A stretch of DNA of 64,000 nucleotides from contig JAVKLJ010000001.1 of assembly GCA_031539225.1 (NCBI GenBank), forward strand, positions 19,791 through 83,790, read 5' to 3'. A program made the position numbers and the translations under genes. Source of the DNA: Patescibacteria group bacterium. Its GTDB lineage: Bacteria > Patescibacteriota > Gracilibacteria > BD1-5 > UBA2023. The notes below the pieces were generated by a model that was not told the DNA's origin, made no database searches, and saw only the letters and a list, made by a program, of their open reading frames with translations. The stretch's first letter is position 1, and each line of letters starts with the position of its first letter. Below, piece by piece: positions 1-64,000 of this stretch.

Positions 1-309
1 TCCGGTCACTCCAACATCACCAGTCTGAATAGTAAGTAAATCTCACTCTCTGAGTATGGATTTCTTATTTTTTAGATGAAATTCACTTGATACAAATTTT
101 ATTCCATAAAAATCAAATCAAGTTTCATTAACATTGTAACCTTGTATATATAGAACTCAGTTCTCTTCAACATAATGATCAGTTGCTTTTCAAACAAATC
201 CATTCGTAATGAGTGTTGTAAGTTTTCTCATTGTTTCAGTCTTCCACTCACCTTGAAATTCCCGAAATCTGAGTTTCGGTATTTTTGATGTAATTTCTTT
301 CTGTGACAT
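1..309 (-). CDS. hsdS: Type I restriction-modification specificity subunit HsdS, 5' part only (gene runs off the left edge)
   Basis: ATG at 307-309, 4 nt after the hsdM stop. With TGA=Gly it reads MSQKEITSKIPKLRFREFQGEWKTETMRKLTTLITNGFVGKATDHYVEENGVLYIQGYNV..LLTIQTGDVGVTG. This is the usual HsdS N-terminus (PKLRF.EF.GEW) and first target-recognition domain. Confidence 0.75.
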
Positions 310-312
310 AGA

Positions 313-1893
313 CTAAAATGGTGATTTTATACCAAGTTCTGCACAATATTTTCTAACTGATTCATCGAGAGTTCTCATATCAGCATATATAGATTGGATT
401 TCAGTTGCTACGGCATCTATATCTATTTCTTCCTCTTCCTCAAATGTATCGACATATCGAGAGATATTGAGATTATAGTCGTTTTGTCGGATTTCCTCAC
501 GAGTAGCAAGATGAGAGTATTTTTCTATCACTTCGCGATTGCGATAAGTGGATATGATTTTCTCAATATGCTCGTCTCGGAGGATATTTTGATTTTTCAC
601 TTTCTCGAATCCTGCACTTGCATCGATAAAGAGGATATCTTCAGGATGTTCACGACACTTCTTGTACACCATGATACACGCAGGGATACTGGTACCATAG
701 AAGAGATTGGCGGGGAGTCAGATAACCGCATCGAGATAGTTGCGATCCTCGATGAGGTATTTGCGGATGCGTTGCTCTGCTCCACCACGAAATAGTGCTC
801 CATGAGGGAGGACGACAGCCATAGTTCCATTGTCATCGAGCTGATAGATCATATGTTGCACGAATGCGAAGTCAGCCTTCGAGCTCGGTGCGAGTTCTCC
901 ATATTGTGAGAATCTATCATCACTCATCTTGAGACTATCTGCTTTCCATTGAGCAGAGAATGGTGGATTTGCGACTATTGCTTCGAATCGCTTTCCGAGG
1001 TGTTGAGGATGTTCGAGAGTATCTTCTTGTTTGATATTGAAGTTTTGATAGGGTACTCCGTGAAGTAGAAGATTCATACGAGCGAGATTGTATGTCGTAT
1101 GATTCATCTCTTGTCCGTAGAAGTCAGTCACATCTCAACTCACTTCACGAGCAACTCGGAGGAGGAGTGAGCCAGAACCACATGTTGGATCGTAGACGGA
1201 TTTGAGGCGAGTTTTGCCAGTTGTGACAATTTTCGCAAGGACTCGAGAGACTTCTTGTGGTGTATAGAATTCTCCCGCCTTTTTCCCTGCCGCACTGGCA
1301 AATTGTCCGATGAGGTATTCGTATGCATCACCGAGGATATCTATCTCAGCATCATGGAGACGGAAATCAATCTGATCAAGTTCGTAGAGGATTTTTGATA
1401 TGAGTTCATTTTTCTGATCTTCTGTTTTTCCGAGCTTCTGAGAACCGAGATCAATATCAGAGAAAAGTCCATCGAAATCATCCTCACTCTCAGAACCCAT
1501 AGTGGAGTTCTGAATATTTACAAGGATTTTTGAGAGGTCGGAGAGGATAAAATTGCTCGATTCACTACTCATCCTAGATGTTCACTTGTTTGCGAGATAT
1601 GAGAAGAGCTCACTCGGTCGAAGAAAATATCAAATATCTGGAATGAGATTTTCTTTGAGATGCGAGAGGATTTCTTTTCCTTCAATCGTAGCTTCATCGA
1701 TTTTTGTGTAATCGGTGATATCTTCATTCTCGAGGAGTTTATTTGCTGCAAGGAGGAGTTTTTCTGAGAGATACTTATAAAATATGAATCCGAGCATATA
1801 GCGTCGGAACTCATCTGCATCCATCTTTCCACGGAGTGCATCTGCTATATTCCAGAGGCGTTGTTGGAGTTGTTTTTTCTGTTCTTCGGACAT
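313..1893 (-). CDS. hsdM: Type I R-M N6-adenine DNA methyltransferase subunit HsdM
   Basis: Four standard-code fragments (313-672, 718-1131, 1135-1572, 1630-1941) share one frame and join through TGA. It has the HsdM N-domain (LWNIADALRGKMDADEFRRYMLGFIFYKYLSEK), the AdoMet motif DPTCGSGSLL and the catalytic NPPF. TAG stop at 313-315. Start taken at MSEEQKK. Confidence 0.9.
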
Positions 1894-1952
1894 ATTTGAT
1901 ATTATTGTTACCAATCCGCCATATTCTACACAAACCTCCATTTTCTCAAAAC

Positions 1953-2002: not shown

Positions 2003-4084
2003 CTATATCCCACGCATCGAGAGCTGGATTTTCTTGGTTTCTGGATCGATTTTCATGATACGAACTTGGACAGATTGTCCTACTTGGACATAGTCGAGAG
2101 GATTTTTCACGAACTGATCTGCGAGTTCTGAGATATGGACGAGTCCGTCATTTTTGAGTCCGACATCGACAAATGCTCCAAATGCCACCACATTTCGCAC
2201 GATACCCGAGAGAATATCTCATTCATGGAGATTTTCGAAACTGGATTTTTTCTTTGCTTCAGTATGCCCAGAGTGTACTCGTGGATCTCTCCCCATAGAG
2301 GCATATGCATCACGGATAAAGGCGATAGTTTCTCGTGTTACGCTCGGATAGAGACCCATGAGAACATCTTTGTAGTCACCAAAATTTGCTGGTGTGATGT
2401 CTTTCTCAAGAACAAAACGAGCAAGTGGATACTGTTCTGGGTGGATATTGGTATTATCGAGTTGTTCTGGGCTTTCAGGAACTCGCAAAAATCCTATCGC
2501 CTGTTCGTAGGCTTTTTCTGAGAGAACTTTTGTGAGAGCAGCACGAGAGGTGTATGGACGGTGATTGTAGACTTTTTTTGCGGAGCGTTTATCGAGTCCA
2601 GATATATGCTCGAGTACTGAGATAGAGGCGATATTCACATTGACTCAGACTTCGTTGACGACATCTTCGACGGTGTAGCCGAGTTTTTCTTCGAGTTTTT
2701 TCGGAGTGATATCATGTTGATACATACCGACTCCGATGCTTCCGACGGGGATCTTCACGAGTTCAGAGAGTGGATCGATATATCGTCTCGCGATAGAGAT
2801 AGTCCCACGATCTGTCGCATCGAGATCGGGAAACTCTAGTCCTGCAAGATCAGATGCCGAGTAGACAGATGCCCCAGACTCATTGACTATATAGATTTTC
2901 TGACTGAGGGTCGCACTCACGAGCTCGACCGTCTCATCTGATCCTGTACCATTTCCGATGACGATGACTCATGGAGTATAGTTATCATTGAGGTTTTTGA
3001 GGATTTTTTTTGCCTCATCGCTTGAGTCGAGAAATATCTTTGAAAATGCGAGTGGATTGCCGAGTGTATCGAGAATGACAATCTTGCAACCTGTACGATA
3101 TCCTGGATCGATACCAAGGATGATATTTCCATATTCTGGACGGGTCATGAGGAGTGAAGCGAGATTGGTCTGGAAAGTCTCGATCGAAGCATCCTCAGCA
3201 CCTGCTGTAAGATCGGATCGCATCTCATTTTCGAGTGAGTCAAAGAGTGCATCATATCCATCATGGATAGCCGTAGCAAGCTCAGGAATGAGGACTCATC
3301 GAGGAAAAAAACTACGGACCTTTTCTTCTCCGATTTCATCTTTTTCGATTTTTATAGAAAGAATCCCAAGATTTTCACCTCGATTCAGAGCCAGTACCTG
3401 ATAGGGCTTGATGGCACTATATCTGATAGAAAAATCCGCATAAATCTCAAATTTCTTTACTTCTCATCGTGTTTTTTCATTGAGCTTTTCGAGCATTTTC
3501 TCACTCTTTTGTTTTGATCGAATGATACCCGTTGCGTGAAAATGAGAACGAAGCGTATCACGAATAATCGCATCAGAAGATATCTCTGCGGCGATGATAC
3601 AGATAGCTCATTCGAGAATCTCCTCTCGAGGAAAGAGAGCAAGAAGATCAGATGGAAGTTCGAATGGGATATTTTTTTTGATGAGATCGGCAATGGATTG
3701 AAATCCCTTTTCTATAGCGATCATCGCCTTTGTTTTTTTCTTTTGTCTGTAGGGCGCGTAGATATCTTCGACTTCTTTTTGCGTTTTCGCTTTTTCGATA
3801 TTGGCTCTGAGCTCTGGGGTGAGTTTGCCTTGTTCATGGATCCCTGTGAGAGCCGTGATTTTCGTTTTATGGAGATTTTCCTCCGATTTTTGGAGTTCGA
3901 TAATTTCACGAATCTGTTTTTCATCGAGTCATCCAGTTCGCTCCTGACGATATCGAGCGATAAATGGCACAGTCGAACCCTCAGCCGTGAGAGTCAATAC
4001 GGCATCTACCTGAGACGGACGAAATGTGAGAGCTCCTGAAATGAGGGAAATATAGTTGGGTTCTGCAGGAAGGAGGAGTTCCAT
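2003..4084 (-). CDS. tex: Tex-like transcription accessory protein (YqgF/RuvC-like, HhH and C-terminal S1 domains)
   Basis: Fragments 2003-2200, 2219-2638, 2645-2920, 2969-3223 and 3929-4084 are in one frame. I translated 3224-3928 codon by codon and found only TGA interruptions. N-terminus STVPFIARYRQERTG, S1 domain GAFVDVGLKNDGLVHISEL. TAG stop at 2003. Confidence 0.88.
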
Positions 4085-4789: not shown

Positions 4790-5380
4790 CTATCCCCTCC
4801 CCCGAAACGCACTCAAAAGCGTAATCTCGTCAGCATATTCGATAGAACCAGCATGTGGAAGCCCCTTAGAAAGTCGAGAAATTTTTATAGCACGGGGCAT
4901 ATGCTCCATGGCATAGAGTGCTGTTGCCTCTCATTCGATATTTGGATTCATCGCGAGGATGATCTCATCGATCACGGTATTTGTAATAATCCGTTCAAAG
5001 AGAGAATCATAGTGGAGCTTATCCGGAGTGACTCACTGTATCGGAGAGATGACACCACCGAGTACATGATATCGTCCACGATACACTCATGTCCGCTCTA
5101 TAGAAAGCATATCAAGGTAATCCTCTACTACACAGAGAGTATGAGTATCTCGTTTTTCATCATTACAGATACGACATACTGGAGAGTCAGATTCCGTCAT
5201 ACCATGACAGAGAGTACATTCTGATACATTTTCATGGAGGTCTGAAAGCGCCTTTGCAAAATTCCGTACATATGCAGGATTTGCCTTGAGAAGAAAAAAT
5301 GCCAGTTTCGCAGCAGTTTTTTCTCAGATTCACGGAAGATAGTGAATCATATCGATGAGTCGTTTGAGGGATTCTGGCAT
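4790..5380 (-). CDS. recR: Recombination protein RecR
   Basis: MPESLKRLIDMIHYLPGIGEKTAAKLAFFLL (both Gly of PGIG are TGA), a C4 zinc finger CTLCHG..CRIC and a Toprim region. 197 codons with a TAG stop. Confidence 0.9.
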
Positions 5381-5381
5381 A

Positions 5382-5738
5382 TTATTCTTTGAGAGTATTT
5401 TTCATCACGATAAATGTCGGCTTCTGTATCTCTATCATTCGCGATACGGCAGGAGAGCTCACAACCGCATCAATAGACTTCCCTTCTGCTATACGGATAT
5501 CGAGGAGATTTTCCTGAAATGAGAGTTCCCTATATTGCACCTGAAGCGTACGGATATTGTATCCTTTTGTTGCATTTTGATTCAGAATCCAGACATAGTA
5601 GACACCGAGGAGAGCAATCATCACGATAGCGAGAATATATGTCTGAGTAAATGAAAGTCTAAAATGTTCTCGAGCGGCTTTTCGCTCAGAGAAGAATGAG
5701 ATATGTCATTTTTTTGCTACGAGAACATTGGCATTCAT
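5382..5738 (-). CDS. Small single-pass membrane protein, FtsL-like (position after rsmH)
   Basis: One TM helix (YILAIVMIALLGVYYVWIL) followed by a coiled segment. It sits directly downstream of rsmH, as ftsL does in dcw clusters. The function call rests on position and topology only. Confidence 0.45.
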
Positions 5739-5759
5739 AAGACAAAAGTTTTGAGGGAT

Positions 5760-6665
5760 TTATTTCTTTTCTACGATTCTGAGTTTCGCACTTCGACTTC
5801 TGGGATTTTCGGCTATTTCATCTGGAGTTGGCTCGATGGGTTTTTTTGTATATTTTGAGAGGAGTGCTGGGACTTTCGTTTGTCAGGTGATTTCATCTTG
5901 TTCATCTTTGAGATACTGCGCAAATATGTTTTTGACGAGTCTATCTTCGAGAGAGTGAAATGTGATAACAGCGATTTTTCCTCCTGGGGCAAGATGCTGG
6001 ATAGCATATTCGAGAGAGTCTTCGATATGAGCAAATTCATCATTCACAGCAATACGCAATGCCTGGAAACATCGAAGTGGTGATTTTTGGTCGAAACTTG
6101 CCTCTGCGATGATATCACGAAGCTTTGCTGTTGTATCTATACGCATAGTTTTTCGCTTTTCGATAATAGCACGGGCGATATAGCGAGACTTGGGCTCATC
6201 AGCATAGCGGAAAAATACACGAGCAAGCTCTTCTTCAGAAGTGGTATGGATAAAATCTTCAGCCGTACGACCGTGTGTCCGATCAAATCGCATATCCAGT
6301 GGTCCATCCATACGCAGCGAAAATCCACGAGAACCATCATCATAGTGGAGACTACTGACTCAGAGATCATAGAGGATAAAATCTATTTTTTTCTCTTCTT
6401 TGAGTATATCCGCTATTTGAGCAAAACTCTCATTATAAAGAGAGACTTTTGCCTGCGTTTCGATAGATTCGAGTTTTTCTTTTGCGAGGACAAAGTTATC
6501 TCTATCACGATCAAAACCTATAAGCTCATCTCAATTTCCGAGAAAAGAAAGGAGCATACTCGCATGTCCACCGAGACCGAGTGTTGCATCGATCACCGTT
6601 TTTTTCGATGGATGGAGAGAAAAAACAGAACGAATTTCCTCAAAAAGTACTGGAGTATGAGACAA
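5760..6665 (-). CDS. rsmH: 16S rRNA (cytosine1402-N4)-methyltransferase RsmH (MraW)
   Basis: SHTPVLFEEI..IDATLGLGGHA..YDLGVSSLHYDD..RGFS..GPLDMRFD..ITFHSLEDRLVK..NPRSRSAKLRIVEKK. ORF 5883-6311 continues through TGA on both sides. No ATG is available, so the start was placed at TTG 6663-6665. Confidence 0.9.
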
Positions 6666-6831
6666 AAGTACAAGCGATAAATGATAAAAACGAACGCTTC
6701 AAAGATAGTATTTTTTCTGTTCCTGTCAAACCAAAATGGAGTAAAGTTTTTGACAAAAAATACACAAAAATCTCGACAAATAGAGAGATTGTGAAAAAAA
6801 TGGCAAAAAACTCCCCATTTTCTTTTGAAAA

Positions 6832-8475
6832 ATGAGGTATTTTTTCTATAATCAGCCCATGCCACAATTTAAAACAAAAAAACTCAAAACAGTCACTCCA
6901 ACAGATAATGAAGGAATAATCCCAGAAAACACAATCATCAAAAAAAGACTCAGATACATCATCGGAGGATTTCTCGTGGTTTTAACTGGGGTTTTTCTCA
7001 TAAACATGGGAATACAAGCTATGAGTAATATTCGTCTTTGAAGTTCTACTGGAGCTATTTTTAAGCCGATTACATTTCCTATATTTTCGACAAAACCAAC
7101 AGATGAAAGTGTGACGAACATCCTCATTGCTGGAATCTGAGGAAAATGACACGAATGAGGAAATCTCACCGACTCACTCATGCTCGCATCGTTTGATGCA
7201 AAAAATAAACAAGTGACACTTCTCTCTCTTCCGAGAGACCTATTTGTAGCATATCCAAATCATACCTGAGCAGGCCGCATCAATACACTCTATGGAATAG
7301 GGAAGGAAAATGGGGAAGGAATAAATCTCCTCGCAAATAAAGTATCAGAAATCACGGGACAACCAATACAACACTATCTCGTTATCGACTTCGGATGATT
7401 TAAAGATCTCGTCGATGCACTTGGTTGAGTTGAGGTAGATGTCCCTCATGATCTCGTCGACCGCGAATATCCAGATGAAAACTGGGGATATACGACTTTT
7501 GTTGTTCGAGCATGAACACAGACATTTGATGGAAATACCGCCCTCAAGTATGCGAGAAGTCGACATTCGACGAGTGACTTTGATAGATCAGAACGACAGC
7601 AAATACTCATAAAAGCAATCAAGAATAAAGCACTGCAACTCGAAATACTCACGAACCCATCAAAAATAAAATCTCTGTATGATACAATATTATCCCATCT
7701 CGATAGCGATCTCACTCTTGGAAATATAGTAGATTTAGGTATCAAATTCCAAGACATACCATCCGATCATATCCATGTATACAATCTCAATAATGAGTGC
7801 TATTGAAGTATTTGTTCTGCATGAGCCTATCTCTATACCCCATCACGAGAATACTTTGGCGGAGCATCAGCTGTGATTCCGGAAAATGCAACAGCACAAA
7901 AACTCAGTGTCTATGATGATATAAAGAGATTTGTAAGTTTCATCTTTACATTTCCAGATATAAGAAATGATCGATATCCGATAAATATCATCACAACAAA
8001 AACAAATGAGAAGCAAGCAAAGAGACTTCTTCTCGAATTTCAAAAAATGTGACTTCAGATGGAGCCAAATAATGCCATACTCTTTACTGGATGACTCGAT
8101 ACTTCCCATATAAATATATATTGGAATATGGATGCTGACATAGGATTCTCTCCTGAAAATCTGATTGTAAAGGCACTGAAATCTATCGAGGAAACAATAC
8201 CATATATCAGTGTTTCACATAATGAGTTTATCACCGATAAATGACCTCGTATAGAAATAGTTCTCGGAAAAGATGCTTCGTCATATTTTTCTTTTGCAAA
8301 AACACCTTTTTATCTCCCACTCATCGAATCTACAGGAAGTAATAGTACAACAGGAAATACTCTTTCATCTGAAGGAAAAGTAAATAAAATAAATACCTCT
8401 ACAAAAACACAAACAAAAACCATCCCCTCAACTACTCCATACACGGTAGCACCTGGGGAATGGGAAAACTTTTAG
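6832..8475 (+). CDS. LytR-CpsA-Psr (LCP) family cell-envelope polymer transferase with a long C-terminal extension
   Basis: I translated the full length and found only TGA interruptions. It has an N-terminal TM helix, NILIAGIGGKGHEGGNLTDSLMLASFD..LLSLPRDL..INTLYG..IQHYLVIDFGGFKDLVDALGGVEVDV and ALKYARSRHSTSDFDRSERQQ. The start could instead be the ATG at 6859. Confidence 0.85.
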
Positions 8476-18644: not shown

Positions 18645-20369
18645 ATGTCGTGAGTTGCAGAAATACACACCAGTGATATAGACGCTCTGAGAAAAGAAAG
18701 TCATATAACGAGAATGCAATTAAGTATTCCGAAAACTATTGAATCCATAATCAATCTGACACCACAAGAAGAAATAGAAGAACAAATTCGCCTACATTTT
18801 CCTAATCGATGAGCAACAAAAAAACTTCATAGTTTTTTAATGAAGCATCGATATGTATTTACAGACCTCATACGAGTCATGCATAGATACCGAAAGAATG
18901 ACTCGATAAAATGATGGCACATTGATGATAATAATATTCCAAAAATACAACAAATATTCCTTTTTCGTGGACGCGAAGAAGATTTATGAGAAGAAATAGC
19001 ATCTTTTATAGAACTCATAACAACAAACTCGGATTTCATAGAGTTTACATCAAAACAAGATTCGATATTTGATATAGGTTCTTATGACTTTTCTCTATGA
19101 ATGAGAAACCATGATAATCAATTTGATATAAAAAAAGCGAAGAAAAATATCCGAAAGCTCATCATTACAGGAATGATAGGCAATATTCAATGATGCACTG
19201 AAGCAAATCTTGAACATCACTTTTGATTGATGAAAGATAAGATTTTTAAGTATATTAATGAAATTTATTGAGTGTATCTTAGCGATATAGAATGGGTAAC
19301 AACTCTGGAACAACTCACATGCGAACTTGCCAAACTCTTTGAAACAGGAAAAGGAAACAATAGAAAAAGGGCATGGAGAATGGTACAAGCATTTCATTGG
19401 TGAGATATTGTAGATATAGAATATCGTTACAGTAAAACCAAAGAACGCCTTTCTGATGTTGCTGAAAAACTCAATAAAAATGGGATAAACATAAATATGA
19501 ATGAATTATCTCACTCAACAAATGTACAGTGAGTAGAAATATGGTCAGCACCATGGGAATTTAAAGGAAAAATAATAATTGTGTCATGGAGAGCAAAAAC
19601 CCCAAAAAGCATGATAAAAAAACTCAGCTGAACAGAAGAGTATGTACGAACAACTTCTATTCGAGATGAGTTATGAATTTCATTTACTTACGATGATAAT
19701 ACGCCTTCGGAAGATATAGTAGAAATAATGAAATTATGATCAAATATGCTCGCGGATCATGGGTATATACTCAAAAACAAATGAGAAATCAATGATGATA
19801 AAATATTTCAGGAATTAATGGAAAATTCACCGAAAAAACCGCTTTTCTCAAATCAAGAACCATGATGAAATCCAAATATGCAAAATGCAAGTCAAAGTGG
19901 ATTTATGAGTATATGACGAGGGAGAAAAAAAGAAGCAATCGGATGTGAAATACAGTATAGTAAAAAATGATGAATGGATTGGAAAAAGAAAGAAGATATT
20001 ATATATAAACTCAAGGAAGCCATCAAGGCATGAATGAGATGAGCAGAACAAGCATCACCAAAAGAAATATTCGATGAATTTACACGAGAAATTCATAGAA
20101 ATGAACTCATAAATATATGTAATCCTGATACTGGTAAAAGTCTTTGAATATCAAGTTACAATGAGCTCATGAAGTATTTTATAGAAAAAAATTTTATCAT
20201 TCCTCATTTTTGAGTTTATAATGAGAAAACTATACTCCTATTTACAACAGGAACATATATGCTGACTTTTGAGAGAAAATGGAATATGCGACCACTAATA
20301 AAATCTATAAATAAGGAAGAATACGATAAAATGATTGCTGTTATAGATTGATTAACAGAAACTCATTAA
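18645..20369 (+). CDS. Hypothetical 574-aa protein with a central RelA/SpoT-like (alarmone-synthetase-fold) motif set; invisible under the standard code
   Basis: Continuous frame from the ATG at 18645 to the TAA at 20367, with about 24 TGA codons and no other stop. The ORF track shows no plus-strand ORF here. Motifs occur in the order WRAKTPKSMIKKL .. SIRDELGISF .. SQSGFMSIG .. AIGCEIQY, matching the RSH synthetase blocks R.K...S...KL / D..G.R / GY.S.H / E.Q. Confidence 0.7.
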
Positions 20370-21061
20370 TAAAAATCTTTCCTTTTCATCCACTCACCAA
20401 ACTTTCTCGCAGCCTCAACTCCTGGATCAATTAGATCTGGGAGTTTTTTATTTCTTTTAATATAATATTTTTCTATAGAGTTCCGAATAAGTGGATAATG
20501 CGTACACCCGAGAACAAGCGCTTCAATATCAGAAGAAAAATGACTGAGATACACATCAAGTAAGCCATCTATCTGATCTCACTCTACAATCCCCTGCTCA
20601 ATCAAAGGAACGAGTCAAGGGGCAGAGATTTCTTCGACCGAGACAGAATCATCGAGAATATGCACTCGTTCCTTGTACATACGAGTTCTCACAGTTGCCT
20701 CTGTGGCGAGTACACCAATCTTTTTATATCACCCTTCGACGACAGCTTCCGCACCAGGAACTGTCACTCAGAGAATATGTCTTCAGGAATATACTTCTTG
20801 CTGAAGCCACCTGAGTGCATGGACACTTGCAGTATTACAGGCAAGTATGATGACATCTGCTCATCTCTCAAAAAGTCTTTCTACTCAAGCTTTTGTCAGT
20901 CTTCGTATCTCATCTTGTGTCTTATCTCCATATGGTGCATTTTCTCTATCCATTTCGAGGATCATATCTATATTAGGAAAGTATGACTGAAAAACCTCCA
21001 TAACGAGTTTTCATCAAAGTCACGAATCAAAAAATCAGATACACAGATTAGATTTTTGCAT
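20366..21061 (-). CDS. murI: Glutamate racemase MurI
   Basis: IGFFDSGLGG (three of these Gly are TGA), ILACNTAS and VLGCTHYPL. 231 aa. Its stop overlaps the stop of the convergent 18645-20369 gene within TTAA. Confidence 0.92.
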
Positions 21062-24155: not shown

Positions 24156-24470
24156 ATGAGCATCTCTCATGATATGATCGAAAAGATCACTCCCCTCTCG
24201 GATAGAGTACTTCTGAAACCTGTAGAGGCAGATAAGGTCACAGCATCAGGTATCATCATCCCTGATAGTGCCAACAAAGAACGACCATCCGTCTATGAGG
24301 TCATCGCTATCGGACCTGGAAAGATGGACAAAAATGGACAAGAAATAAAAATCGACCTCAAGAAATGAGATCGAGTTATCAGCGGACAATACTCTGGTGA
24401 TGATGTAAAAGTCGGAGATACTACTTATAAGATAGTAGCGTTTGAGTATATTTTGGCGAAAATCGCATAA
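24156..24470 (+). CDS. groES: Co-chaperonin GroES
   Basis: [37 protein letters not shown]..; 104 aa with one in-frame TGA (KKGDRVI). Confidence 0.92.
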
Positions 24471-24632: not shown

Positions 24633-24995
24633 ATGGATTTAAAAACTTTTGTAAAAGAATCTCTGATTCAAATCGATGAAGCATTAGCTGAAACATCTGA
24701 AAGATTTACTCAATATAGTTATAAATATTGAAGAAATACTTGAGGAAATCCAACTATTGACTTTGAAGTGCAAGTCTACGCTTCTGAATGAACATGAACA
24801 ACATGATGAGCATGAATAAGCGTTGCTTGATGGAAATTATGAATGAACTGAGAAAGTAAGAACTCAAACTATGAACAAAGCAAAATCAGCTTTAGTGTTG
24901 TAAGAGAAAATACACCTAAACAAGATAAGATCGAAAGAGAAGAAAGGAAAAAACATGCTCCAGTATTAAAAACCTATACCCCATTTAATGCATAA
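24633..24995 (+). CDS. Small trypco2-like (trypsin-co-occurring domain 2-like) protein inserted between groES and groEL
   Basis: MDLKTFVKESLIQIDEALAETSERF..GGNPTIDFEVQVYASEGTGTTGGAGISVAGWKLGMNGESKNSNYEQSKISFSVVRE. The layout is an N-terminal helix, a beta strand, a Gly-rich loop and more beta strands. Ten Gly in the loop are TGA codons. Start chosen at the ATG at 24633; the frame is open from 24480. Confidence 0.6.
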
Positions 24996-39400: not shown

Positions 39401-39896
39401 AACCTATGGGGAACTTCGCATGGAAGAGGATTTTCGTACAGCATGATGAGGAACATGGCTCGGGGATATACAACTCACTGGAAAAATCGACCGTATAGAA
39501 AAACTACCCGACGATTCACTGATAATCACTGATTACAAGACTGGTCGTGGTTTCGATAGTTTTGATGGTCGATGAGTAGAACATGAGAAAATCAAACAAT
39601 GGAAATACCGACTCCAACTTTGTTTTTATGCGATACTTTTTGAACTCTCTCCCCGATGGAGGATGTTTACGAATAAAAAATACGAACTCTTCTTCGTCGA
39701 GAAAAATAGGGATGAAGAGCGATTTCATAGAGTAGTAGAGTACATACAGGAATGAGAAATAGAGAGAACGAAAAAACTCATCATCGCTGTAATGTGAAAA
39801 ATCCAAACTCTCGATTTCCCTGATATCAGTGCATATCCAAAAACTCTCGAGGGAATACGGATGTTTGAAGAGGATTTACTTAACGGAAATGTTTAA
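36405..39896 (+). CDS. UvrD/PcrA-type SF1 helicase fused to a C-terminal PD-(D/E)XK (AddB/Cas4-like) nuclease domain
   Basis: Helicase motifs AGPGSGKT, MIDEFQDTN, FAVGDDDQSIYKFQGA, NYRS, VYKAKGLEW and YTAITRAKD. The C-terminus has GKIDRIE..LIITDYKTG. Fragments 36282, 37326, 37695, 38178 and 38937 are all in frame. 1163 aa. Confidence 0.85.
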
Positions 39897-41417: not shown

Positions 41418-41681
41418 TTATTTTCGGAGTCCGAGTTTCTCGATGAGAACAGCATAACGAGATTCTTCCTTGCCCTTAAGGTAATCGAGGAGTTTTCGGC
41501 GTTTTGCTACCATCATGACGATACCACGGCGAGAGTGATTGTCTTGTTTGTGTGACTCGAGGTGAGTCTTGAGGTTCTCGATGCGCTCTGTGAGGATTGC
41601 AACCTGAACTTCTGGAGATCCAGTATCACCCTTATGGGTAGCGAATTTCTCCATGATCGCTTTTTTTGCTTTGTGATCCAT
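41418..41681 (-). CDS. rpsO: 30S ribosomal protein S15
   Basis: [49 protein letters not shown]. No TGA codons. Confidence 0.95.
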
Positions 41682-44878: not shown

Positions 44879-47590
44879 TTAATCTTTTACCACTATCGAT
44901 AGCATCTTATTTGGGATAAATATCTCTTTCACGAGTGTTTTTCCTTCGAACCACTTTGCTATGTCTGGATTTTCGTGAGCTAGAGCTGAAACCTCTTCCT
45001 GTGCTACTCAGTTAAAACAATTGAGAGTACCACGGAGTTTTCCATTTACCTGGATAGCTATCGTCACCTCGTCATCGACAAGCATAAAATCATCATACTC
45101 TGGCCAAGTTGCTTCATAGATTGATTGACTCTTTCCAAGTGTCTGATAGAGTTCCTCTGCCATATGTGGAGCAAATGGATGAAGCAGTATAGCAAATGCT
45201 TCCTTCCATTCTGAAGCAAACTCACTATCTGCAGGAATTCCTTCATTGAGGAGGATCATGAGTGATGAGATGGCGGTATTGAACTTGTATCCGACGATAT
45301 CTTCTCCTACCTTTTTGATAGTTTTATGGAGGAGTTTCATTGCCTTCATATCATCTTTTGCGATATTTTTTCCATCGATACATGCACTATATGCCTTATC
45401 GAGGAAGCGCCTCACGCCTGTGATAGCCTCAGGATTCCATGGAGCAGTATCCATAAATCCTGCCATATTCATCTCATAGAGCCTCAGTGTATCTGCACCA
45501 TACTCACGAACAATGTCATTTGGATTCACTACATTCTTGAGTGATTTACTCATCTTTGCGACGACTTGCTTCACCTCCTTCCCTGTCTCTTTTTCAAAGA
45601 ATTTTCCATCTCGTTCCTCCACGAGATCAACCGCTACGAGACCGCCATCGGCTCGCTCATACGCATATGCGAGAATCATACCGACATTTGTGAGTTTCTG
45701 AAATGGCTCCTTGGTTGGAACAATTCCTGCATCGTAGAGTACCTTGTGCCAAAATCGTGCATAGAGAAGATGGAGGACAGCATGCTCAGCACCCCCAACA
45801 TATTCATCCACACTTCCCCAATAATCAAGTGCATCTTTCGAGGCAAGTGCATCTGGGTTTTTCGAATCCATGTAGCGGAGGTAATACCAACAACTTCCAC
45901 CCCATTGTGGCATCGTATTTGTTTCTCTTTTTCCACTGAGATTTTCCGCAAGTTTTATATTTACGAATGAGGGTACAGTCGCAAGTGGCGACTGCCCATC
46001 TCCTGCTGGTTCGTAACGCTCTACCTCTGGAAGTGTAAGAGGAAGACGAGAATCTATAATAATCTTTCCATTGATACCATCATACACTTTTGAAAAAGTC
46101 TTTCCTCCGATGATGAGCTTTGTACATCATTCTTCACAGGTACAGTTTTTACACCTTTTATCCGTTCCCTTTTTATCGAGGATATATGCACTATTTACAT
46201 CTGTCGCCTCTGACATATCAGATATACGAGGAAGTGCGAAAAAATCCTCATGGCTGATATGGATGAGTGGAATCGGTTCCCCCCAATATCTCTGACGAGA
46301 AAAGAGCCAATCACGGAGTTTGTATTGAGTAGATTCTTCTGCAAAATTATTAGTTACAAGGTATTGAATGATATCATTATGTGCTTCATGTGGATTTCTT
46401 GATGCAAATTCTTCTGGTAAAGAAAGGATGGCTCAGGAAAAATCATTGTAACAATACTCGAAATTCTCAATTTTTCTTTTTTCTTCTAAGGAAACATCTT
46501 TCGGTAACATAACAACCCTCAAGGGTAAGTTATATTTTTTTGCAAAATTAAAATCTCTCTCATCATGAGCAGAGCATTTTATTATACCAGTTCAATAATC
46601 TGATAAAGCATAACTAGAAATCCAAAGCGGTAATTCAGATTTAGTAATAGGATCTATCAAATAACGACCAGTAAATATTCATTCATGATCAGTAACTTCC
46701 TTATATCATCAACCAACCTTTTGATTATTAATTCTCTGAGCAAAAGATAAAATCTCATCCTTGTTCTCAATTCCATCAACTATTTTTGGCAGTAATCAAT
46801 GATCTGGTGCGATAACCGCAAATGTGTCAGCATAAAAGGCCTCAAAATGAGTAGAATATGTTTGAATTGTAATATCCGTGTCTTTTACATTTAAAGAGTA
46901 TTTCACCCCTTTATTTTTCCCTATCCAGTTTCTCTGCATTTCTTTGATTCCTTCTGGCCAGTCAAGTTCATCCAAGTCAGAGATAAGTCTCTCGGCATAT
47001 TCTGTGATTTTGAGTACCCACTGACGGATAGGACGACGCTCTACACGAGTTCCACATCGATCACAAGTATTATCTGAGAGAACTTCTTCGTTTGCAAGAC
47101 CCGTCTTACATGATGGGCAGTAGTTGATCGGGAGATCCTGTTCGTAGGCGAGTCCTCGCTTGAAAAGCTCGAGAAAAATCCACTGAGTCCACTTATAATA
47201 CTCTGGATCTGTCGTATCTACCATACGATTCCAGTCATAGGAAAAACCAAGATTCTTAAGCTGACTGATAAATGTCTCTATATTTTGCGCAGTTGTGACC
47301 CGCGGATGTGTCCCTGTTTTGATAGCATAGTTCTCGGCTGGAAGACCAAAAGCATCAAATCCCATCGGATGAAGGACATTGTATCCTTTTGCATGATAAA
47401 AACGAGAAACAATATCGGTCGCAGTATACCCCTTTGGATGACCAACATGGAGTCCTGCACCAGATGGATAGGGAAACATGTCGAGAATATATTTCTTTGG
47501 TTTTGTTCCACCATTTTCTGTATGAAAAGTCTGGTTTTCATCCCAAAATTTTTGCCACTTTTGTTCGATAGAAGTATGATTGTACGGCAT
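44879..47590 (-). CDS. leuS: Leucine--tRNA ligase
   Basis: [12 protein letters not shown] (HIGH) and [10 protein letters not shown] (KMSKS). I translated the CP1 editing-domain region 46088-46795 and found it open apart from TGAs (..[19 protein letters not shown]..). ORF 45008 continues through TGA to the TAA at 44879. 903 aa. Confidence 0.95.
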
Positions 47591-48215: not shown

Positions 48216-48512
48216 TTATACTGCAACTGCAGATTCATCGAGAATAACTTCAGTCGTAGGAGCACTAGAAGGTGTAGCCTTTGATTGGAATTTTACATCG
48301 AGAACATACGGAAGAAGTGCCATGTAACGAGCGCGTTTTACAGCAACCGCGAGACGCTTCTGATTTCGGAGACTTGTTCCACTGTAGTAGCGAGGAACAA
48401 TCTTGTTAAATTTCGTGAGAAATTTTTTGAGAAAAGCTGTATCCTTGTAATCGATATACTTGATTCCAAGCTCATCGATAGGACATACTTTCTTTTTCTT
48501 TGAGTTTGTCAT
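48216..48512 (-). CDS. rpsR: 30S ribosomal protein S18 with a ~25-aa C-terminal tail
   Basis: IDYKDTAFLKKFLTKFNKIVPRYYSGTSLRNQKRLAVAVKRARYMALLPY. No TGA codons. Confidence 0.93.
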   Translation of the reverse strand: MTNSKKKKVCPIDELGIKYIDYKDTAFLKKFLTKFNKIVPRYYSGTSLRNQKRLAVAVKRARYMALLPYVLDVKFQSKATPSSAPTTEVILDESAVAV

Positions 48513-48541
48513 AGAAAGGAGAAAAGGAAATAAAATGGAAA

Positions 48542-48934
48542 TTAAGCGAGATCCGAAAAGTCATCAAAATCCATAACATCAGATTGAGCTTCAGCAAAGT
48601 CTTCTCTTTTAGAGAGGAATATCAGCTGACCAACTACCACTTCAGTTTTATAGATTTTAGAACCATCTTCTTTGTCGAGGACTCGAGTCTTGAGATGACC
48701 TTCTATATAAACGAGCTTCCCTTTTGTAAGGAATTGTTCAGCTCGTTCTGCAAGAGGACCCCAACAGACACAGTTTGTATACTCAGCTTCAGAAAGTGGT
48801 TCACCATTTGATCCCTTATAGTAACGATTGGTCGCAACAGTAAATGTAGCAACTTTTTTATCACCCGTTGTAGTTTTTACGAATGGGTCTTTTGTAATGT
48901 TTCCTATAAGGATAACTTTATTGATAGTACGCAT
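48542..48934 (-). CDS. ssb: Single-stranded DNA-binding protein
   Basis: NKVILIGNITKDPFVKTTTGDKKVATFTVATN is an OB fold. The tail is acidic (DFDDFSDLA). No TGA codons. Confidence 0.93.
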   Translation of the reverse strand: MRTINKVILIGNITKDPFVKTTTGDKKVATFTVATNRYYKGSNGEPLSEAEYTNCVCWGPLAERAEQFLTKGKLVYIEGHLKTRVLDKEDGSKIYKTEVVVGQLIFLSKREDFAEAQSDVMDFDDFSDLA

Positions 48935-48949
48935 AAGAGAAAGGTAAAA

Positions 48950-49237
48950 TTATTCATCTATTCTAACGAACATATGTCGCCAGATGTTTGTTTTGATGTT
49001 AAAAGCCTTCGTTACAGCAAAGAAATCTGGTTTTTCAGACTCAAGTGTATAAAGAAGGTAAAATCCAGTGGAAGATCCACGAATTTTGTAAGCAAGATCT
49101 CTCTCGCCTGGATGATTCTCTGATGTGATTTTCGCACCAGCATGTTCAATTTCAGTTTTGATAGACGCGATAAGCTCTTTTTGCTCATCTGCCGACAGAA
49201 CTGGATTGATAATCATCATGAGTTCGTATTGTCTCAT
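48950..49237 (-). CDS. rpsF: 30S ribosomal protein S6
   Basis: MRQYELMMIINP..GERDLAYKI..GFYLLY. Canonical rpsF-ssb-rpsR order. No TGA codons. Confidence 0.93.
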   Translation of the reverse strand: MRQYELMMIINPVLSADEQKELIASIKTEIEHAGAKITSENHPGERDLAYKIRGSSTGFYLLYTLESEKPDFFAVTKAFNIKTNIWRHMFVRIDE

Positions 49238-50493: not shown

Positions 50494-50600
50494 TTTAATT
50501 GTTATATTCATGTAATAATTAACTTTCATTCCGTCTTCTTTTTGCTTTTTTTGCTTTTTTCCCTAAGATTCAGGCATTCAAAATTTAACAAAATAGAATC

Positions 50601-51995
50601 ATGTTTATCGATGAAGTATCACTCACACTCAAAGCTGGAACCGGATGAAATGGTGTTATATCCTGGCGTCGTGAAAAATATATCCCAAAAGGTGGCCCTT
50701 ATGGAGGAGATGGCTGAGATGGTGGGGATATCATACTCAAGGCTACAACACACGAGACAACACTCGTGCATTTTCGTCATAAAAAACTCATAAAGGGTGA
50801 AGATGGCGAGCGAGGTGGGACGGCTCTCATGCATGGAAAAAGTGCATCTGACACTATTCTCGAAGTTCCAGTCGGAACTATCGTCACCGATGCGGAAGAT
50901 GGAACCGTTATTTGTGATCTCTCGACAGCTGGAGAGACATTTATGATCTGTGAATGAGGTCGTGGAGGATTTGGAAATGCACACTTCCCTTCTAGTACTC
51001 GTCAGGCACCAAATTTTGCTGAACTCGGTGATACAGGTGATATAAGAGAGGTAAAGCTCGAACTCAAGCTCGTCGCAGATATCGGACTTGTTGGACTTCC
51101 AAATGCAGGAAAATCCACTCTTATTCAGTCGATTACAAATGTGAAACCAAAGATTGCACCATATCCTTTTACGACAATTATCCCAAATCTTGGAGTTATG
51201 GAATGGAAAGGACGATCTCTCGTAATCGAGGATGTTCCAGGTCTCATCGAATGAGCAAGTGAAGGAAAGGGGCTCGGTTTCCAATTTCTCAAACATATCG
51301 AACGATGTAAAATCATCCTCCATCTTCTCGATGCGAGTCAAGATACAGAGGCAATCATAGAAAACTATAAAACTATCAGAAAAGAACTCGAAGCATGGAG
51401 TGATGATATGAAAGATAAAGAAGAATTTATCATCCTCACAAAAGCAGATATCATCGATCCTGAGCAACTTGAAGAAATGCGAAAAGATTTCGAAAAAGCG
51501 ACAAAAAAGAAAGTGCTTCTCACACTTTCAGCAGGGGCATATATCCGCATAGATGAACTCAAAGATATCCTCATAGATACCATTCCTGAAAATAAACGCG
51601 AAGAAGCACCCCTCGTAGAGGATGCTGATGGAATGCTCCAAGAACAAAAAATTAAAGAAGAAAAGAGTATAGCCTACTATAACCTCAAAACACAAAGAGA
51701 TGGAAAACGCTGTACGATAAAAAGACGGGAGGATGGGGATTTTGAGATTGCTGGTGAACGAATAGAGGAAATCGCACGAATGACAGATACTCGTTATGTG
51801 GATGGAGTAAATCGAGTCTACGATGTGATGGAAAAAATGGGTGTGATGCGAAAACTCAAACTCATGATCCATGATGATATCGCAAATGCTGGAGGTGGAT
51901 TCTTCGAAGGAGAGGATGATTTTACTATTCCTGATGTATGGATTGGTGGAAAGAAATTTTCTCTCGAAGGACTCATATTTATGCGGGAATCCTAG
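50601..51995 (+). CDS. obg: GTPase Obg/CgtA with a C-terminal OCT domain
   Basis: [47 protein letters not shown]1 [10 protein letters not shown]3 DVPGLIEGA, TKAD and an OCT-like tail. Fragments 50766 and 51408 are in frame with the ATG at 50601. Confidence 0.93.
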
Positions 51996-52022
51996 TCAGT
52001 CATACATCATAATTTCTTTTTT

Positions 52023-55930: not shown

Positions 55931-56011
55931 AAAGAAAAAGGTATAAAATATTATAAGAGGAATTCTAGGTAAAAACCTTGCTTTTGCAATAGAAAAGATT
56001 AGTCTACATAC

Positions 56012-56791: not shown

Positions 56792-56806
56792 TTCTTGGAG
56801 GAGTTT
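56776..56806. terminator. Palindromic terminator, copy 2; both convergent genes end inside it
   Basis: aaactcctccaa-ttaattc-ttggaggagttt. The M48 TAA (56789-56791) and the GT26 TAA (complement of 56788-56790) both sit in the loop. Confidence 0.6.
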
Positions 56807-58750: not shown

Positions 58751-58868
58751 GCCGAAAGTATAGATGTTTTTTTGTTAGAATCAATGTTTGATGAAAGAAA
58801 AAGAAAACTGGAAAAATAAGGGGAAAAGGATAGAATTTGGGAAGCATTATAATTTAAACTACTAAAAT

Positions 58869-61356: not shown

Positions 61357-62329
61357 TACAAAAAATATAGCATTCGTATCGCCTATCGGAAACGGTGGTC
61401 CAAGTGAACTCTATAAGACACTTGTGCCGCTCTTAAGTCATGAGCTATGAAAAGATTCTATCAATCTTGTCATGAGTACGAAAGAATGGATCAAACTACA
61501 CTTCTATGGAGGAAAGCATGATACCATCGTGAGTGTTCTTCCTTTTTTATGGAAGCCAAATTGTCAAAATTTTATCCTCAATATTCATGGTGACTATCGC
61601 GAAGATAGAGGATGGAAAAAACCTGGAGCGATACTGGCTTTTCTCTATCCATGGTCAGCGAGATTTGCTGATATGCTCATATTTCCGTCCGAATACCTCA
61701 GAAAAAAACTCAGTCTCCATCATAAAAATGAAAGAATAATCGGCAACATATGTGCCTTCCCGATACGAGGAACTCCAAAAGAAAAAGTATGAAATCCAAT
61801 AAAACTGATATCGACAACCAACTGGAATAATCCACAAAAAGCTGAGGCTATGCTCGCTCTCATAAAAACAATCGTAGAGCAAAAAGAAGTGGAAAATATC
61901 GAATGGACGATCACCGGATGATGAGACCTTTCCTATAAAGAAGAAATCGAATCAATAACAAAGAAAAATATATCCATAAAGATACAAACAGTTGGATTAC
62001 AAGAGAATAAAAAAATACAAGAACTCCTCGAAGAAAGCGACATATTTATCTATGCGACTTATGTGGAAACATTTGGAATTGCGATACTCGAAGCCGCAAG
62101 TCAATGACTCCCGCTCGTCCTTTTATCACATGATGCATTTTCATGACTCTGGAACGATGATGCCATTTTTCATCTCGACGATATGGCAAATGAGATAAAA
62201 AAACTCAAAGAAGATGAACTTTATTATAGAAACCGAAGTGAAGCGAGCCTCACTGATGCAAGAAAATTTAGAAAAGAAGCAATTATAGAGCTTTGGAAGA
62301 ATCTGTTCACAAATGAATCCGAGATATAA
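61349..62329 (+). CDS. GT-B glycosyltransferase (GT4-like)
   Basis: ATYVETFGIAILEAASQGLPLVL (EX7E-like). ATGAATAA overlap with the upstream gene. Fragment 61472 is in frame. Confidence 0.7.
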
Positions 62330-63431
62330 AATCCTCATGGATTTTTTCTAGGGAAAACTCTTTTTCCATTCTTTGTCTCGCCATTTTTCAAAATGATGTA
62401 AGTATGTCCGGATCAAAACACTGTATAAGTGTTTTTTTGATATCTCAGATTTCTAAAGATGGAAATATTAGTCCCGTTTCCCCATCCAAAATATAGTATC
62501 GAGCTCCGACTGTTGGACTCACGACTGCGGGTACTCATGAGGCATTTGCCTCAGGAACAACCATTCATACAGCTTCATTAAAACTTGGTAATACAAGAAG
62601 GTCGTATTTTTTGTAGATTTCGGGCATTTTCTCTGCTGGAACTTTTTCGAGAAATGTAACAAAATCTGCAAGTCACAAAGCCTGGACTTTTTCTCGAAGC
62701 TCATCCATCATATAGCCTCAGTTTCCAAGAAGGGAAAGATGAAAATTATCGTACCCATCATTTTTTAGCTCTGAAAGTGCACGAAAAAGAAGTTCATGAT
62801 TTTTGTATCAGACAAATCGGGCCACCATCAGTATCTCCAAGATACCATTCTGCATGAATATTTTATTCTCAGTTGGAAAATATATTTTTGTATCTATCGG
62901 GATAGGGAGTATCGAGACGAGATGCTTTTGGATTGAGTATGTATGAAAAAAATCTCTACCCATTTCTGAATAGACAAATATTCCAGATAAACGCGCTTGA
63001 AATATATACAATAAGAAAGTAAAAATACACAGTACAATACGAGGGAAAATACCACGAGGCAACATCTTTGTTTCAGAATAGAGAAAAATCTGTGTTTTCT
63101 TCGAAAAGAAAGAATATACAAGAGTCTGCCAAAAGTAGAGATTGTAATAATCCATCACCACAATAATATCAGGCGCAGTGACACGAAGAGATGATACAAG
63201 TCATGAAAAATATTTTGGTGGAGAAAGCTCAAGTCAAAAAATCCGATTCAACATATGAGTAAATCGCACGAAAAGAAAATCAAGAAAAATAATATCTACA
63301 TTTTCAGATATTTTTTCACGAATATCCCAGTCTGGATAGAGGACGACATCAAAATCAGAAAGCAAACTCCGAATAAGAGGAACATGCAAGTGATTTGGTC
63401 CAATACATGCGATTTTCTGTTTATGATTCAT
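62283..63431 (-). CDS. GT4-family glycosyltransferase
   Basis: Fragments 62808-63161 and 63234-63431 are in frame. The C-terminal half was translated through TGAs: LLVLPSFNEAVGMVVPEANASGVPAVVSPTVGARYYILDGETGLIF. The first TAA is at 62283, so it overlaps the convergent gene by 47 nt. Confidence 0.75.
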
Positions 63432-64000
63432 ATGTTTTTATGAGGTTTTTCCATTGCTGGAGGGATTTTTCGAGAGAGAAATATTCTGCGCGTTCTCGCA
63501 AAATAGATGGAAAGAAGCTAGAGGCATGCGTGTCGAAAGATTTTAGTACATCATAGAGTCCTTGTTCTTCGGGATTCATAGGTATATCGAGAGAAAGTTC
63601 TGATCCAGAAGATGGAGAAACTATATATCCATAGGGAGTCGTCATAGGTACAGCACCAGCAAGACTATCATGAATGAATCGAAGTGCTGGGATATCAGAT
63701 GAGATTATCGGAGTACCAAGTGCAAGAGACTCGAGAAATACGAGACCAAAAGATTCAGCAAGACTCGGAAGTACGAACGCAGTTGCACGAGTACAGTATA
63801 CCCATGGATTCGTTTGTACACCAAGAAGTCGGATATTTTTTTGAAGATTATATTTCTGGGTAAATGATTTTATAGTATCATACATATCACCATCCCCGAT
63901 GATAACAAGATATTTTTCTGGATTCTCTCGAACAAGAAAAGCAAAAACACGCAGGAGTCCCACCCATCATTTTTGAGCAGTAAAGCGACCGATAGAGAGA
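63421..64000 (-). CDS. GT4-family glycosyltransferase, 3' part (gene runs off the right edge)
   Basis: IGRFTAQKG.., VLPSLAESFGLVFLESLALGTPIISSDI. TAA stop at 63421. Overlaps the next gene's start by 11 nt. Confidence 0.8.

Follow-up and report, generated by a model that had tools for sequence, protein, structure and literature searches.

The question raised by this locus is which genetic code its genes are written in, and what TGA means in them. The window analysed, the whole stretch of 64,000 nt (positions 1..64000, both strands), has a low GC content (37.6%), and a preliminary description had proposed that it is written in a UGA=glycine code (NCBI translation table 25). The ORF, alignment, HMM and codon-exchange evidence all favoured this proposal, and the window is, judging from its sequence, almost certainly chromosomal DNA of an uncultured member of the Gracilibacteria (BD1-5 / Candidatus Altimarinota; GTDB class JAEDAM01) that uses table 25. 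On the codon and residue patterns presented below, UGA was shown to serve as an ordinary glycine codon, with UGG for tryptophan, CGA and CGG for arginine, and only UAA and UAG for termination.

When TAA, TAG and TGA were all read as stops, two ORFs of at least 300 aa were present in the whole window, the longest being 372 aa. Reading TGA as sense gave 47 such ORFs, the longest being 1205 aa, and this change bears out the same-frame fragmentation described earlier for the standard code. No such gain was obtained in the controls, with three ORFs of this length for TAG as sense and four for TAA. As the reading of TGA as sense also yields long wrong-strand shadow ORFs, a coding-potential model is needed rather than ORF length alone, and the gene model used here was codon-usage-scored. 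Picking genes by the longest ORF resulted in wrong-strand shadow ORFs at 5355-6680, 20660-22768, 50502-52196 and 52269-53357. The 441 aa ORF at 5355..6680 (+) was rejected as an antisense shadow and not a gene; the real genes beneath it are rsmH (5760-6818, -) and an ftsL-like gene (5382-5738, -).

The gene model comprised 54 genes and 20,006 codons on both strands, covering approximately 95% of the window. It contained 348 in-frame TGA codons, spread over 48 of the 54 genes, and no in-frame TAA or TAG. The mean density was 1.74 TGA per 100 codons (0 to 5.8 by gene), and not the several per hundred that had been stated. As claimed, every complete gene terminated with TAA or TAG (45 and 8 of the 53, respectively). 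A variant of table 25 in which UGA is context-dependent, encoding glycine within genes yet terminating some of them, is conceivable for lineage-specific genes without standard-code homologues (for example at 13948-17268, 18588-20369 and 39899-40804). This dual use is nevertheless very unlikely, as the TAA and TAG codons coincide with the C-termini of the homologues (RecR 195/196, MurA 417/418, LeuRS 902/903 and Tex 693/693) and release factor 2 (RF2) is reported to be absent from BD1-5 genomes (PMC6851277).

The motifs on which the glycine reading had been based were recovered in the individual genes. Five in-frame TGA codons were present in groEL (25008..26648, +; codons 102, 211, 268, 437 and 542), of which codon 102 is the TGA at 25311-25313 (+) read as AMVKE-G-LREI; four of the five fall on glycines invariant in four solved GroEL structures and one on Ala/Val. 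The IGFFDSGLGG motif of murI (glutamate racemase; 20366..21061, -; 11 TGA) was obtained with TGA as Gly, as described, but required four TGA codons and not three (codons 9, 14, 16 and 17; 21035-21037, 21020-21022, 21014-21016 and 21011-21013). In recR (4790..5380, -; 5 TGA), LPGIGEK was seen as LPxIxEK, with x being TGA at 5330-5332 and 5324-5326; in an alignment with the solved RecR chain 3vdp, four of the five TGA codons, including those for both Gly of LPGIG, fall on Gly and one on Lys. In obg (50601..51995, +), the claimed motif was likewise present, codons 16 and 39 being TGA, and all four TGA codons of this gene are on Gly of E. coli ObgE. The Walker A motif AGPGSGKT was seen as AxPGSGKT, with TGA at 36495-36497, in a UvrD/PcrA-type helicase with a PD-(D/E)XK nuclease domain (36405..39896, +; 25 TGA), and the two blocks of an SGNH/GDSL hydrolase (33270..33911, +; 7 TGA) were seen as FIxDSITExFP and GISxNES, where each x is TGA.

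The residues facing TGA in standard-code homologues were tabulated, and Gly was found there and Trp nowhere. For six proteins, including those encoded by murA (31808..33064, +; 13 TGA) and leuS (44879..47590, -; 8 TGA and 19 TGG), 44 TGA columns aligned with solved structures were read by hand. Twenty-eight of these were on Gly (GroEL 4/5, MurA 7/12, Obg 4/4, RecR 4/5, MurI 7/11 and LeuRS 2/7), and none of the 44 was on Trp. When the helicase columns were pooled over 25 standard-code homologues, Gly and Trp made up 35% and 0% of residues opposite TGA in the window, 48% and 0% opposite GGN, 1% and 35% opposite TGG, and 2% and 0.5% opposite other codons. In Tex (S1-domain transcription accessory protein; 2003..4084, -; 7 TGA), Gly was the majority residue at three of the seven TGA columns (in 33, 40 and 35 of 40 standard-code bacteria), with no Trp among the 256 residues at TGA columns in these bacteria.

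The earlier statement that TGA falls on invariant glycines did not hold overall, as only approximately 55-60% of alignable TGA positions were on Gly in standard-code homologues, the remainder being at variable positions. Ordinary GGN codons in the same gene showed a similar pattern. In distant homologues, for instance, leuS codon 265 faced Pro, murI codon 149 faced Leu and recR codon 98 faced Lys. For the approximately 40% of TGA positions that are not on Gly, ordinary sequence divergence is the sole explanation given.

A competing sense reading is that of table 4, in which UGA encodes tryptophan, as in the Mycoplasmatales and several insect endosymbionts. It would likewise restore the long ORFs, and at the TGA columns of the helicase, public Gracilibacteria homologues carry 684 W against 699 G; these W residues are due to the database translation of the entries and not to biology. 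The lack of Trp opposite TGA in standard-code homologues makes this reading extremely improbable, as do the profile scores. All 20 amino acids were tried as the TGA reading in HMM tests of the helicase and Tex, and Gly was the best of the 20 for both (999.8 bits, with a runner-up at 981.6 and Trp at 950.4, for the helicase; 669.6, 664.8 and 656.7 bits, respectively, for Tex), while Trp ranked 15th to 17th. Gly also scored higher than Trp in all five Pfam families, by 13-38 bits, including murA (214.6 versus 176.7 bits), Lipase_GDSL_2 for the SGNH hydrolase (81.2 versus 59.9 bits), a PfkB-family kinase (33934..34869, +; 9 TGA; 112.1 versus 89.5 bits) and a LytR_cpsA_psr family protein (6859..8475, +; 13 TGA; 126.6 versus 109.0 bits). 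Moreover, Trp would rise from 0.84% to 2.6% of codons if TGA encoded it; the Gly share is 7.2% if TGA is included and 5.4% if it is not.

Three syntenic relatives, compared codon by codon, provided 224 pairings of window TGA codons, which stood opposite TGA in 76 cases, GGN in 97 and TGG in none, the last count being further evidence against table 4; conversely, TGA of the relatives stood opposite window GGN 80 times. Four of the seven alignable leuS TGA positions were GGA, GGT or TGA in relatives. Window TGG was paired with TGG in 110 of 125 cases, which, together with the helicase columns, agrees with the earlier view that TGG remains Trp and that the code is not table 4. The best protein and locus matches were to Candidatus Gracilibacteria or Altimarinota (50-88% aa identity, with conserved synteny), and standard-code Patescibacteria were found at 33-36% identity only, consistent with the placement of the window in the recoded Gracilibacteria clade. 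The finding of TGA or GGN at matching positions in independent assemblies also argues against a standard code whose in-frame TGAs would stem from selenocysteine, programmed readthrough, pseudogenes or sequencing errors. Nothing speaks for that explanation except the existence of in-frame TGA at all, and with TGA in so many genes, groEL, leuS, murA and obg included, it is vanishingly improbable.

A code of the extended Absconditabacteria type (Shulgina and Eddy 2021), where Trp is additionally encoded by CGA and/or CGG, was considered as well. CGG=Trp has been predicted in the literature for some Gracilibacteria, and CGG is rare in the window (24 codons). However, CGA is common, with 244 codons, and was scored as Arg (+55.8 bits over 36 columns), and all 12 comparable CGG codons stood opposite Arg codons in relatives. 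Only two CGG columns are available in the helicase, so that power is low; opposite them are Lys/Arg or Lys/Glu/Leu/Gln, with no Trp. This extension is highly improbable for the window.

Neither the 64-kb window nor the six loci closest to it contained a tRNA gene. A tRNA(UCA) with Gly identity was present in a related Gracilibacteria MAG (contig L015, 8162-8240) and in 23 metagenome loci, the contigs of which have low GC and ORFs that require TGA as sense. The clade tRNA(UCA) has the two ends GCGGGGG...CCCCGC-U-CCA and the anticodon loop CUUCAAC and, in these relatives, carries the Gly identity set G1:C72, C2:G71, G3:C70 and U73; its eight sequence variants differ in the stems by paired changes. 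It matched the general tRNA model RF00005 over its full length (43.5 bits; 76 nt plus CCA) as a normal cloverleaf. A long variable arm was absent from it, so that it is not of the SelC type. ARAGORN labelled this tRNA 'SeC'. The form and identity elements of this tRNA, with the lack of any Rfam match in the window, count against the standard code, and selenocysteine, which had been dismissed earlier on TGA density, can be dismissed on the measured density, the aligned residue (Gly) and the tRNA type.

In the UGA=glycine reading, UGA would be decoded by this dedicated tRNA-Gly with anticodon UCA, known from relatives, which would keep the GlyRS identity set. Loss of RF2 (prfB) would leave no competitor for UGA, and RF1 (prfA) would terminate at UAA and UAG; these two steps draw on the literature, in which prfB was undetected and prfA present in all BD1-5 genomes examined (PMC6851277). 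UGA=Gly in BD1-5 has proteomics validation (PMC4032931, as summarised in PMC6851277), and table 25 is the code assigned to JAEDAM01.

The use of UGA was uneven. It accounted for 24% of Gly codons in the whole window, and for 9% in chaperone, ribosomal and translation genes versus 29% elsewhere; the share was 0-10% for the genes of ribosomal proteins, SSB and chaperones and reached 77-90% in a few ORFs. No TGA was present among the 15 Gly codons of rpsR, ssb and rpsF (48216..49237, -) or in rpsO (S15; 41418..41681, -), one was present in groES (Cpn10; 24156..24470, +), and a Clp/Hsp100-type AAA+ chaperone (28264..30837, -) had four among 53 Gly codons. The low use in the chaperone, ribosomal and translation genes would fit selection against a less efficient or riskier codon in highly expressed genes.

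At the other extreme, a clade-specific ORF of approximately 110-120 aa lies between groES and groEL (24633..24995, +; a further ATG is located upstream at 24480), and TGA accounts for 10 of the 11 Gly codons it contains. The ORF recurs at the equivalent position in three other Gracilibacteria genomes. In its ten invariant Gly columns, TGA was found at 32 of 40 codons (approximately 80%), and 33 of 50 invariant non-Gly columns showed synonymous differences, i.e. the synonymous sites are not frozen. In the neighbours of the ORF at the three other loci, TGA made up 0%, 5% and 41% of Gly codons, compared with 24% in the rest of the window. Beyond relaxed codon choice, the run of UGA codons within the chaperonin operon might represent a sensor or attenuator that couples groEL translation to the capacity for decoding UGA as Gly, by analogy with leader peptides that sense charged tRNA, although this role is unlikely.

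The UGA=Gly recoding has been known since 2013-2014, is proteomics-validated and is already described by table 25, so that the code itself adds nothing new. The consequences for annotation are practical, and the warning that a standard-code annotation of this contig would be invalid is justified: LeuRS is split into pieces of 398, 282 and 51 aa in public metagenome contigs that are nearly identical to this one. Annotation of the contig with table 11 gives such fragmented genes, while annotation with table 4 places Trp where Gly belongs, as in approximately half of the residues at the helicase TGA columns of public Gracilibacteria homologues. Entries with W for Gly corrupt the profiles built for the clade, as well as structure predictions and motif searches in it.

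Among known systems, selenocysteine recoding shares in-frame UGA and a tRNA with anticodon UCA. It differs in that hundreds of sites, not a few, are involved here, SECIS elements are unneeded, the aligned residue is Gly and not Cys/Sec, and the clade tRNA has a cloverleaf of normal length, with G1-C2-G3 in its acceptor stem, and carries U73. The table 4 code of Mycoplasma/Spiroplasma and several endosymbionts shares the change of UGA from stop to sense, the small AT-rich genome and RF2 loss as the proposed route; however, the amino acid here is Gly and not Trp, and the decoding tRNA of the clade has Gly and not Trp identity elements. The extended code of the Absconditabacteria (SR1; PMC8629427), a sister lineage in the same GTDB class, shares UGA=Gly but also has CGA/CGG=Trp, whereas in the window CGA (122 per 10,000) and CGG (12 per 10,000) act as Arg. 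With NCBI table 25, the Candidate Division SR1 and Gracilibacteria code, the window shares UGA=Gly, UGG=Trp and UAA/UAG as stops, and likewise the low GC, the Gracilibacteria/BD1-5 closest relatives and a tRNA-Gly(UCA) in the clade; the two do not differ in code, and the window contributes detail only.

UGA was decoded as glycine throughout the window, with UAA and UAG as the only terminators. Under the standard code, the 64,000 bases (GC content 37.6%) contained just two open reading frames (ORFs) of at least 300 amino acids, the longest having 372, compared with 47 such ORFs, the longest having 1205 amino acids, when TGA was read as a sense codon. As a control, TAG or TAA was read as sense instead, which gave three and four such ORFs, respectively; the gain was therefore specific to TGA. 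The final gene model, for which codon usage was scored and genes were extended to the first ATG, comprised 54 genes and 20,006 codons and covered approximately 95% of the window. All 53 complete genes ended in TAA (45 genes) or TAG (8 genes), as expected from the preliminary description, in which genes were cut by in-frame TGA and ended in TAA or TAG. Every motif quoted in that description was present at its position, although the murI motif IGFFDSGLGG contains four TGA codons and not three, and the mean TGA density (348 in-frame codons, or 1.74 per 100) was lower than the "several per hundred" proposed.

A greedy longest-ORF model (52 genes, 94% of the window) was rejected, as it included Cys- and Phe-rich nonsense sequences that were antisense shadow ORFs. 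These lay over real genes at 5355-6680 and 20660-22768 on the forward strand, and at 50502-52196, 52269-53357 and 55763-56437 on the reverse strand, and reached up to 700 amino acids. The genes beneath them were rsmH, murI, secD/F, obg and a wecB-like epimerase gene. Because TGA does not act as a stop and there are few TTA (97) and CTA (81) codons, the antisense frame is nearly stop-free, and ORF length on its own selects the wrong strand in this window. The leucine codon bias was unusual for 37.6% GC, with CTC accounting for 1029 of about 2060 leucine codons, and TTA and TTG together for 172.

The amino acid encoded by TGA is glycine, not tryptophan, and six independent lines of evidence concur on this. 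The protein sequences for comparison were generated by a script that rendered TGA as X, G or W. When six window proteins were aligned with solved structures from standard-code organisms, glycine was found at 28 of the 44 aligned TGA positions and tryptophan at none of the 44. The glycine matches were 4/4 in Obg, 4/5 in GroEL (remainder Ala/Val), 4/5 in RecR (remainder Lys), 7/12 in MurA (remainder Ser, Ala, Val/Met and Val/Thr), 7/11 in MurI and 2/7 in LeuRS, the remainder in the last two being mixed non-glycine residues, for example Leu at codon 149 of MurI and Pro at codon 265 of LeuRS. The UvrD/PcrA-type helicase (36405-39896, forward strand) was compared with 25 standard-code Patescibacteria homologues of 33-36% identity. 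Pooled glycine and tryptophan frequencies were 35% and 0% in TGA columns, 48% and 0% in GGN columns, 1% and 35% in TGG columns, and 2% and 0.5% in the columns of other codons. Five of the six TGA columns with at least 80% conservation were glycine. For the transcription accessory protein Tex (2003-4084, reverse strand), genome contigs of 40 standard-code bacteria (Halanaerobium, Ilyobacter, Anaerolineales and others) provided the comparison. Glycine occupied three of seven TGA columns (in 33/40, 40/40 and 35/40 sequences), the other columns were variable polar positions, and no tryptophan occurred among the 256 residues at TGA columns.

Profile scores gave the same result. With HMMs built only from standard-code homologues, glycine was the best of all 20 possible readings of TGA for both the helicase (999.8 bits; runner-up 981.6, tryptophan 950.4) and Tex (669.6 bits; runner-up 664.8, tryptophan 656.7). 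With curated Pfam models, glycine outscored tryptophan in five of five proteins, by 38, 13, 23, 18 and 21 bits. The profile comparison and the tabulation of residues at TGA, both suggested in the preliminary description, were thus in agreement with its reading. In three syntenic relatives, the 224 counterparts of window TGA codons included TGA (76) and GGN (97), and TGG never. The window TGG codons were paired with TGG in 110 of 125 cases and with TGA once, in keeping with the earlier claim that TGG still encodes tryptophan. Counting TGA raised the glycine share of codons from 5.4% to 7.2%; tryptophan made up 0.84%, a share that would rise to 2.6% if TGA were read as tryptophan.

The earlier placement of the contig was supported by the best protein hits, which were annotated as Candidatus Gracilibacteria or Candidatus Altimarinota; the phylum with NCBI taxid 363464 previously bore the name Gracilibacteria. 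The window and the three relatives, namely a JGI metagenome contig, GCA_042852035.1 and GCA_013268835.1, had a common gene order across some 20 kb. Short metagenome contigs (6-8 kb) matched the window at 92-97% nucleotide identity, and their gene calls were fragmented because table 11 had been used; LeuRS, for instance, was cut into pieces of 398, 282 and 51 amino acids on near-identical sequence. Among the public helicase homologues (P0001-P0095), most Gracilibacteria entries had tryptophan at TGA columns, where it accounted for roughly one residue in two (684 W versus 699 G); these W entries had therefore been translated with table 4 and not table 25.

Some further observations were made on the relatives. 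The JGI 3300079086 contig showed a mosaic similarity to window positions 25617-46084, with 95-97% nucleotide identity in the helicase region and only 77-84% in the flanking groEL and murA, which suggests recombination among related strains. An SGNH/GDSL hydrolase gene (33270-33911, forward strand), located between murA and a pfkB-family gene, was missing from that position in two related loci (L005 and L006), where an acyltransferase gene or merely a small ORF was present. Gracilibacteria-type tex genes, with 49-66% identity to that of the window, were found on contigs deposited as Bdellovibrio sp., Bdellovibrionales, 'archaeon UBA583' and Candidatus Peribacteria, among other names (L028, L029, L038, L040, L041 and others), which suggests that these contigs were mislabelled or are binning contaminants.

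No tRNA or other Rfam match was found within the 64-kb window at gathering thresholds, and ARAGORN detected no tRNA in the three syntenic relatives and three short contigs. A tRNA predicted to decode UGA as glycine was found in relatives only. It was located at 8162-8240 of a Gracilibacteria MAG contig (L015, CAKZJF010000061.1), 1.8 kb upstream of tex. Its anticodon, UCA, lies in the loop CUUCAAC, the acceptor stem is GCGGGGG/CCCCCGC, the discriminator is U73 and the CCA is encoded. Shulgina and Eddy (PMC8629427) called tRNA-Gly(UCA) by precisely this set of glycine identity elements. Synteny around tex was not conserved between this MAG and the window, so the position of the tRNA is uninformative for the genome of the window. 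A pattern scan of metagenome contigs recovered the same tRNA at 23 loci (within L089-L166) as eight sequence variants differing through paired stem changes. All 23 loci were of low GC content (36-43%), and in all of them ORFs were two- to eight-fold longer, or more, with TGA as sense. ARAGORN labelled the tRNA of this clade, in L015 and at the 23 loci, as 'tRNA-SeC', and automatic annotation would therefore list a selenocysteine tRNA in these genomes. In the literature, prfB was absent and prfA present in all BD1-5 genomes examined (PMC6851277), table 25 has been assigned to the GTDB class JAEDAM01, and a statement in PMC6851277 attributes proteomic validation of UGA as glycine to PMC4032931. 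No wording on tRNA or release factors was found in Hanke et al. 2014.

The TGA share of glycine codons varied strongly from gene to gene in the window (chi-square P = 4e-14). In a housekeeping set (chaperone, ribosomal-protein, SSB, Obg, SecDF, LeuRS and AhcY genes), 9% of glycine codons were TGA, against 29% in all other genes (Fisher P = 2e-15). The share was zero in five small genes, rpsO, rpsR, rpsF, rpmG and ssb (41418-41681, 48216-49237 and 49890-50063), 8-10% in groEL, clp, obg and secDF, and 55-62% in murI, an unannotated ORF of 593 amino acids (18588-20369) and a Schlafen/AlbA_2 gene (58869-60257). This would be compatible with counter-selection of UGA in strongly expressed genes. The shares on the forward and reverse strands, 28.5% and 18.6%, are confounded with gene content.

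A conserved ORF (24480-24995, core 24633-24995, forward strand), probably starting at 24633, was present between groES (24156-24470) and groEL (25008-26648). The ORF was also located at 1834-2166, 3001-3357 and 3001-3492 of the loci L182, L183 and L184, respectively. The nine homologues found were all from Gracilibacteria-type sequences and had no Pfam family, and the order groES-ORF-groEL was kept in a Logan assembly as well as in GCA_001871945.1 and GCA_964523635.1. In four genomes, TGA was used at 32 of the 40 codons (about 80%) of ten invariant glycine columns, compared with 24% of glycine codons in the rest of the window. Synonymous differences occurred at 33 of 50 invariant non-glycine columns, so the synonymous sites of this ORF are not frozen. 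Neighbouring genes in three other loci used TGA at 0/105, 32/79 and 7/138 glycine codons (0%, 41% and 5%; Fisher P = 3e-9, 0.03 and 2e-10 against the ORF). The predicted structure of the family was of low confidence (mean pLDDT 60.7, pTM 0.47), and a regulatory role for this TGA-rich ORF is an improbable speculation. A CIRCE-like inverted repeat, TTAGCACTT-N9-AGGTGCTAA, was noted about 120 bp upstream of groES (24009-24035, forward strand). It differs from the consensus at 3 positions, and 100 shuffles yielded no match; the window also contains hrcA (41787-42485).

Pfam families were likewise absent for the lineage-specific ORFs at 13948-17268, 18588-20369 and 39899-40804, as for 24480-24995, with TGA as either X or G. 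Accessory genes included a predicted methylase subunit of a type I restriction-modification system next to a partial gene (1-1941, reverse strand; from sequence reading), a weak type IV secretion pilin match (47688-48047, reverse strand; 22.9 bits, below the Pfam cut-off), the Schlafen gene, on the forward strand, with AlbA_2 and HATPase_c_4 domains, and a putative run of cell-envelope glycosyltransferase-like genes at the right end (56788-63999).

The finding of the preliminary description is real and its interpretation is right; UGA as glycine is already known, being a textbook feature of the clade. The value is practical: such sequences should be annotated with table 25, not 11 or 4, with a guard against shadow ORFs. 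In a small Codetta-like tally, which covered 1,856 codons of the helicase and Tex, 58 of 62 codons matched the standard code and TGA was assigned to glycine; the three remaining mismatches concerned infrequent codons whose columns were few or carried little information. CGA and CGG were also tested, because Shulgina and Eddy (PMC8629427) reported their reassignment to tryptophan in Absconditabacteria and predicted CGG as tryptophan for some Gracilibacteria. CGA was common in the window (244 codons) and CGG was rare (24 codons). Together with the codon tally, their behaviour indicates that strict table 25 is used in the window. In contrast to the Absconditabacteria, where both codons are reported to encode tryptophan, CGA here behaved as arginine, and all 12 comparable CGG codons were paired with arginine codons in the relatives.
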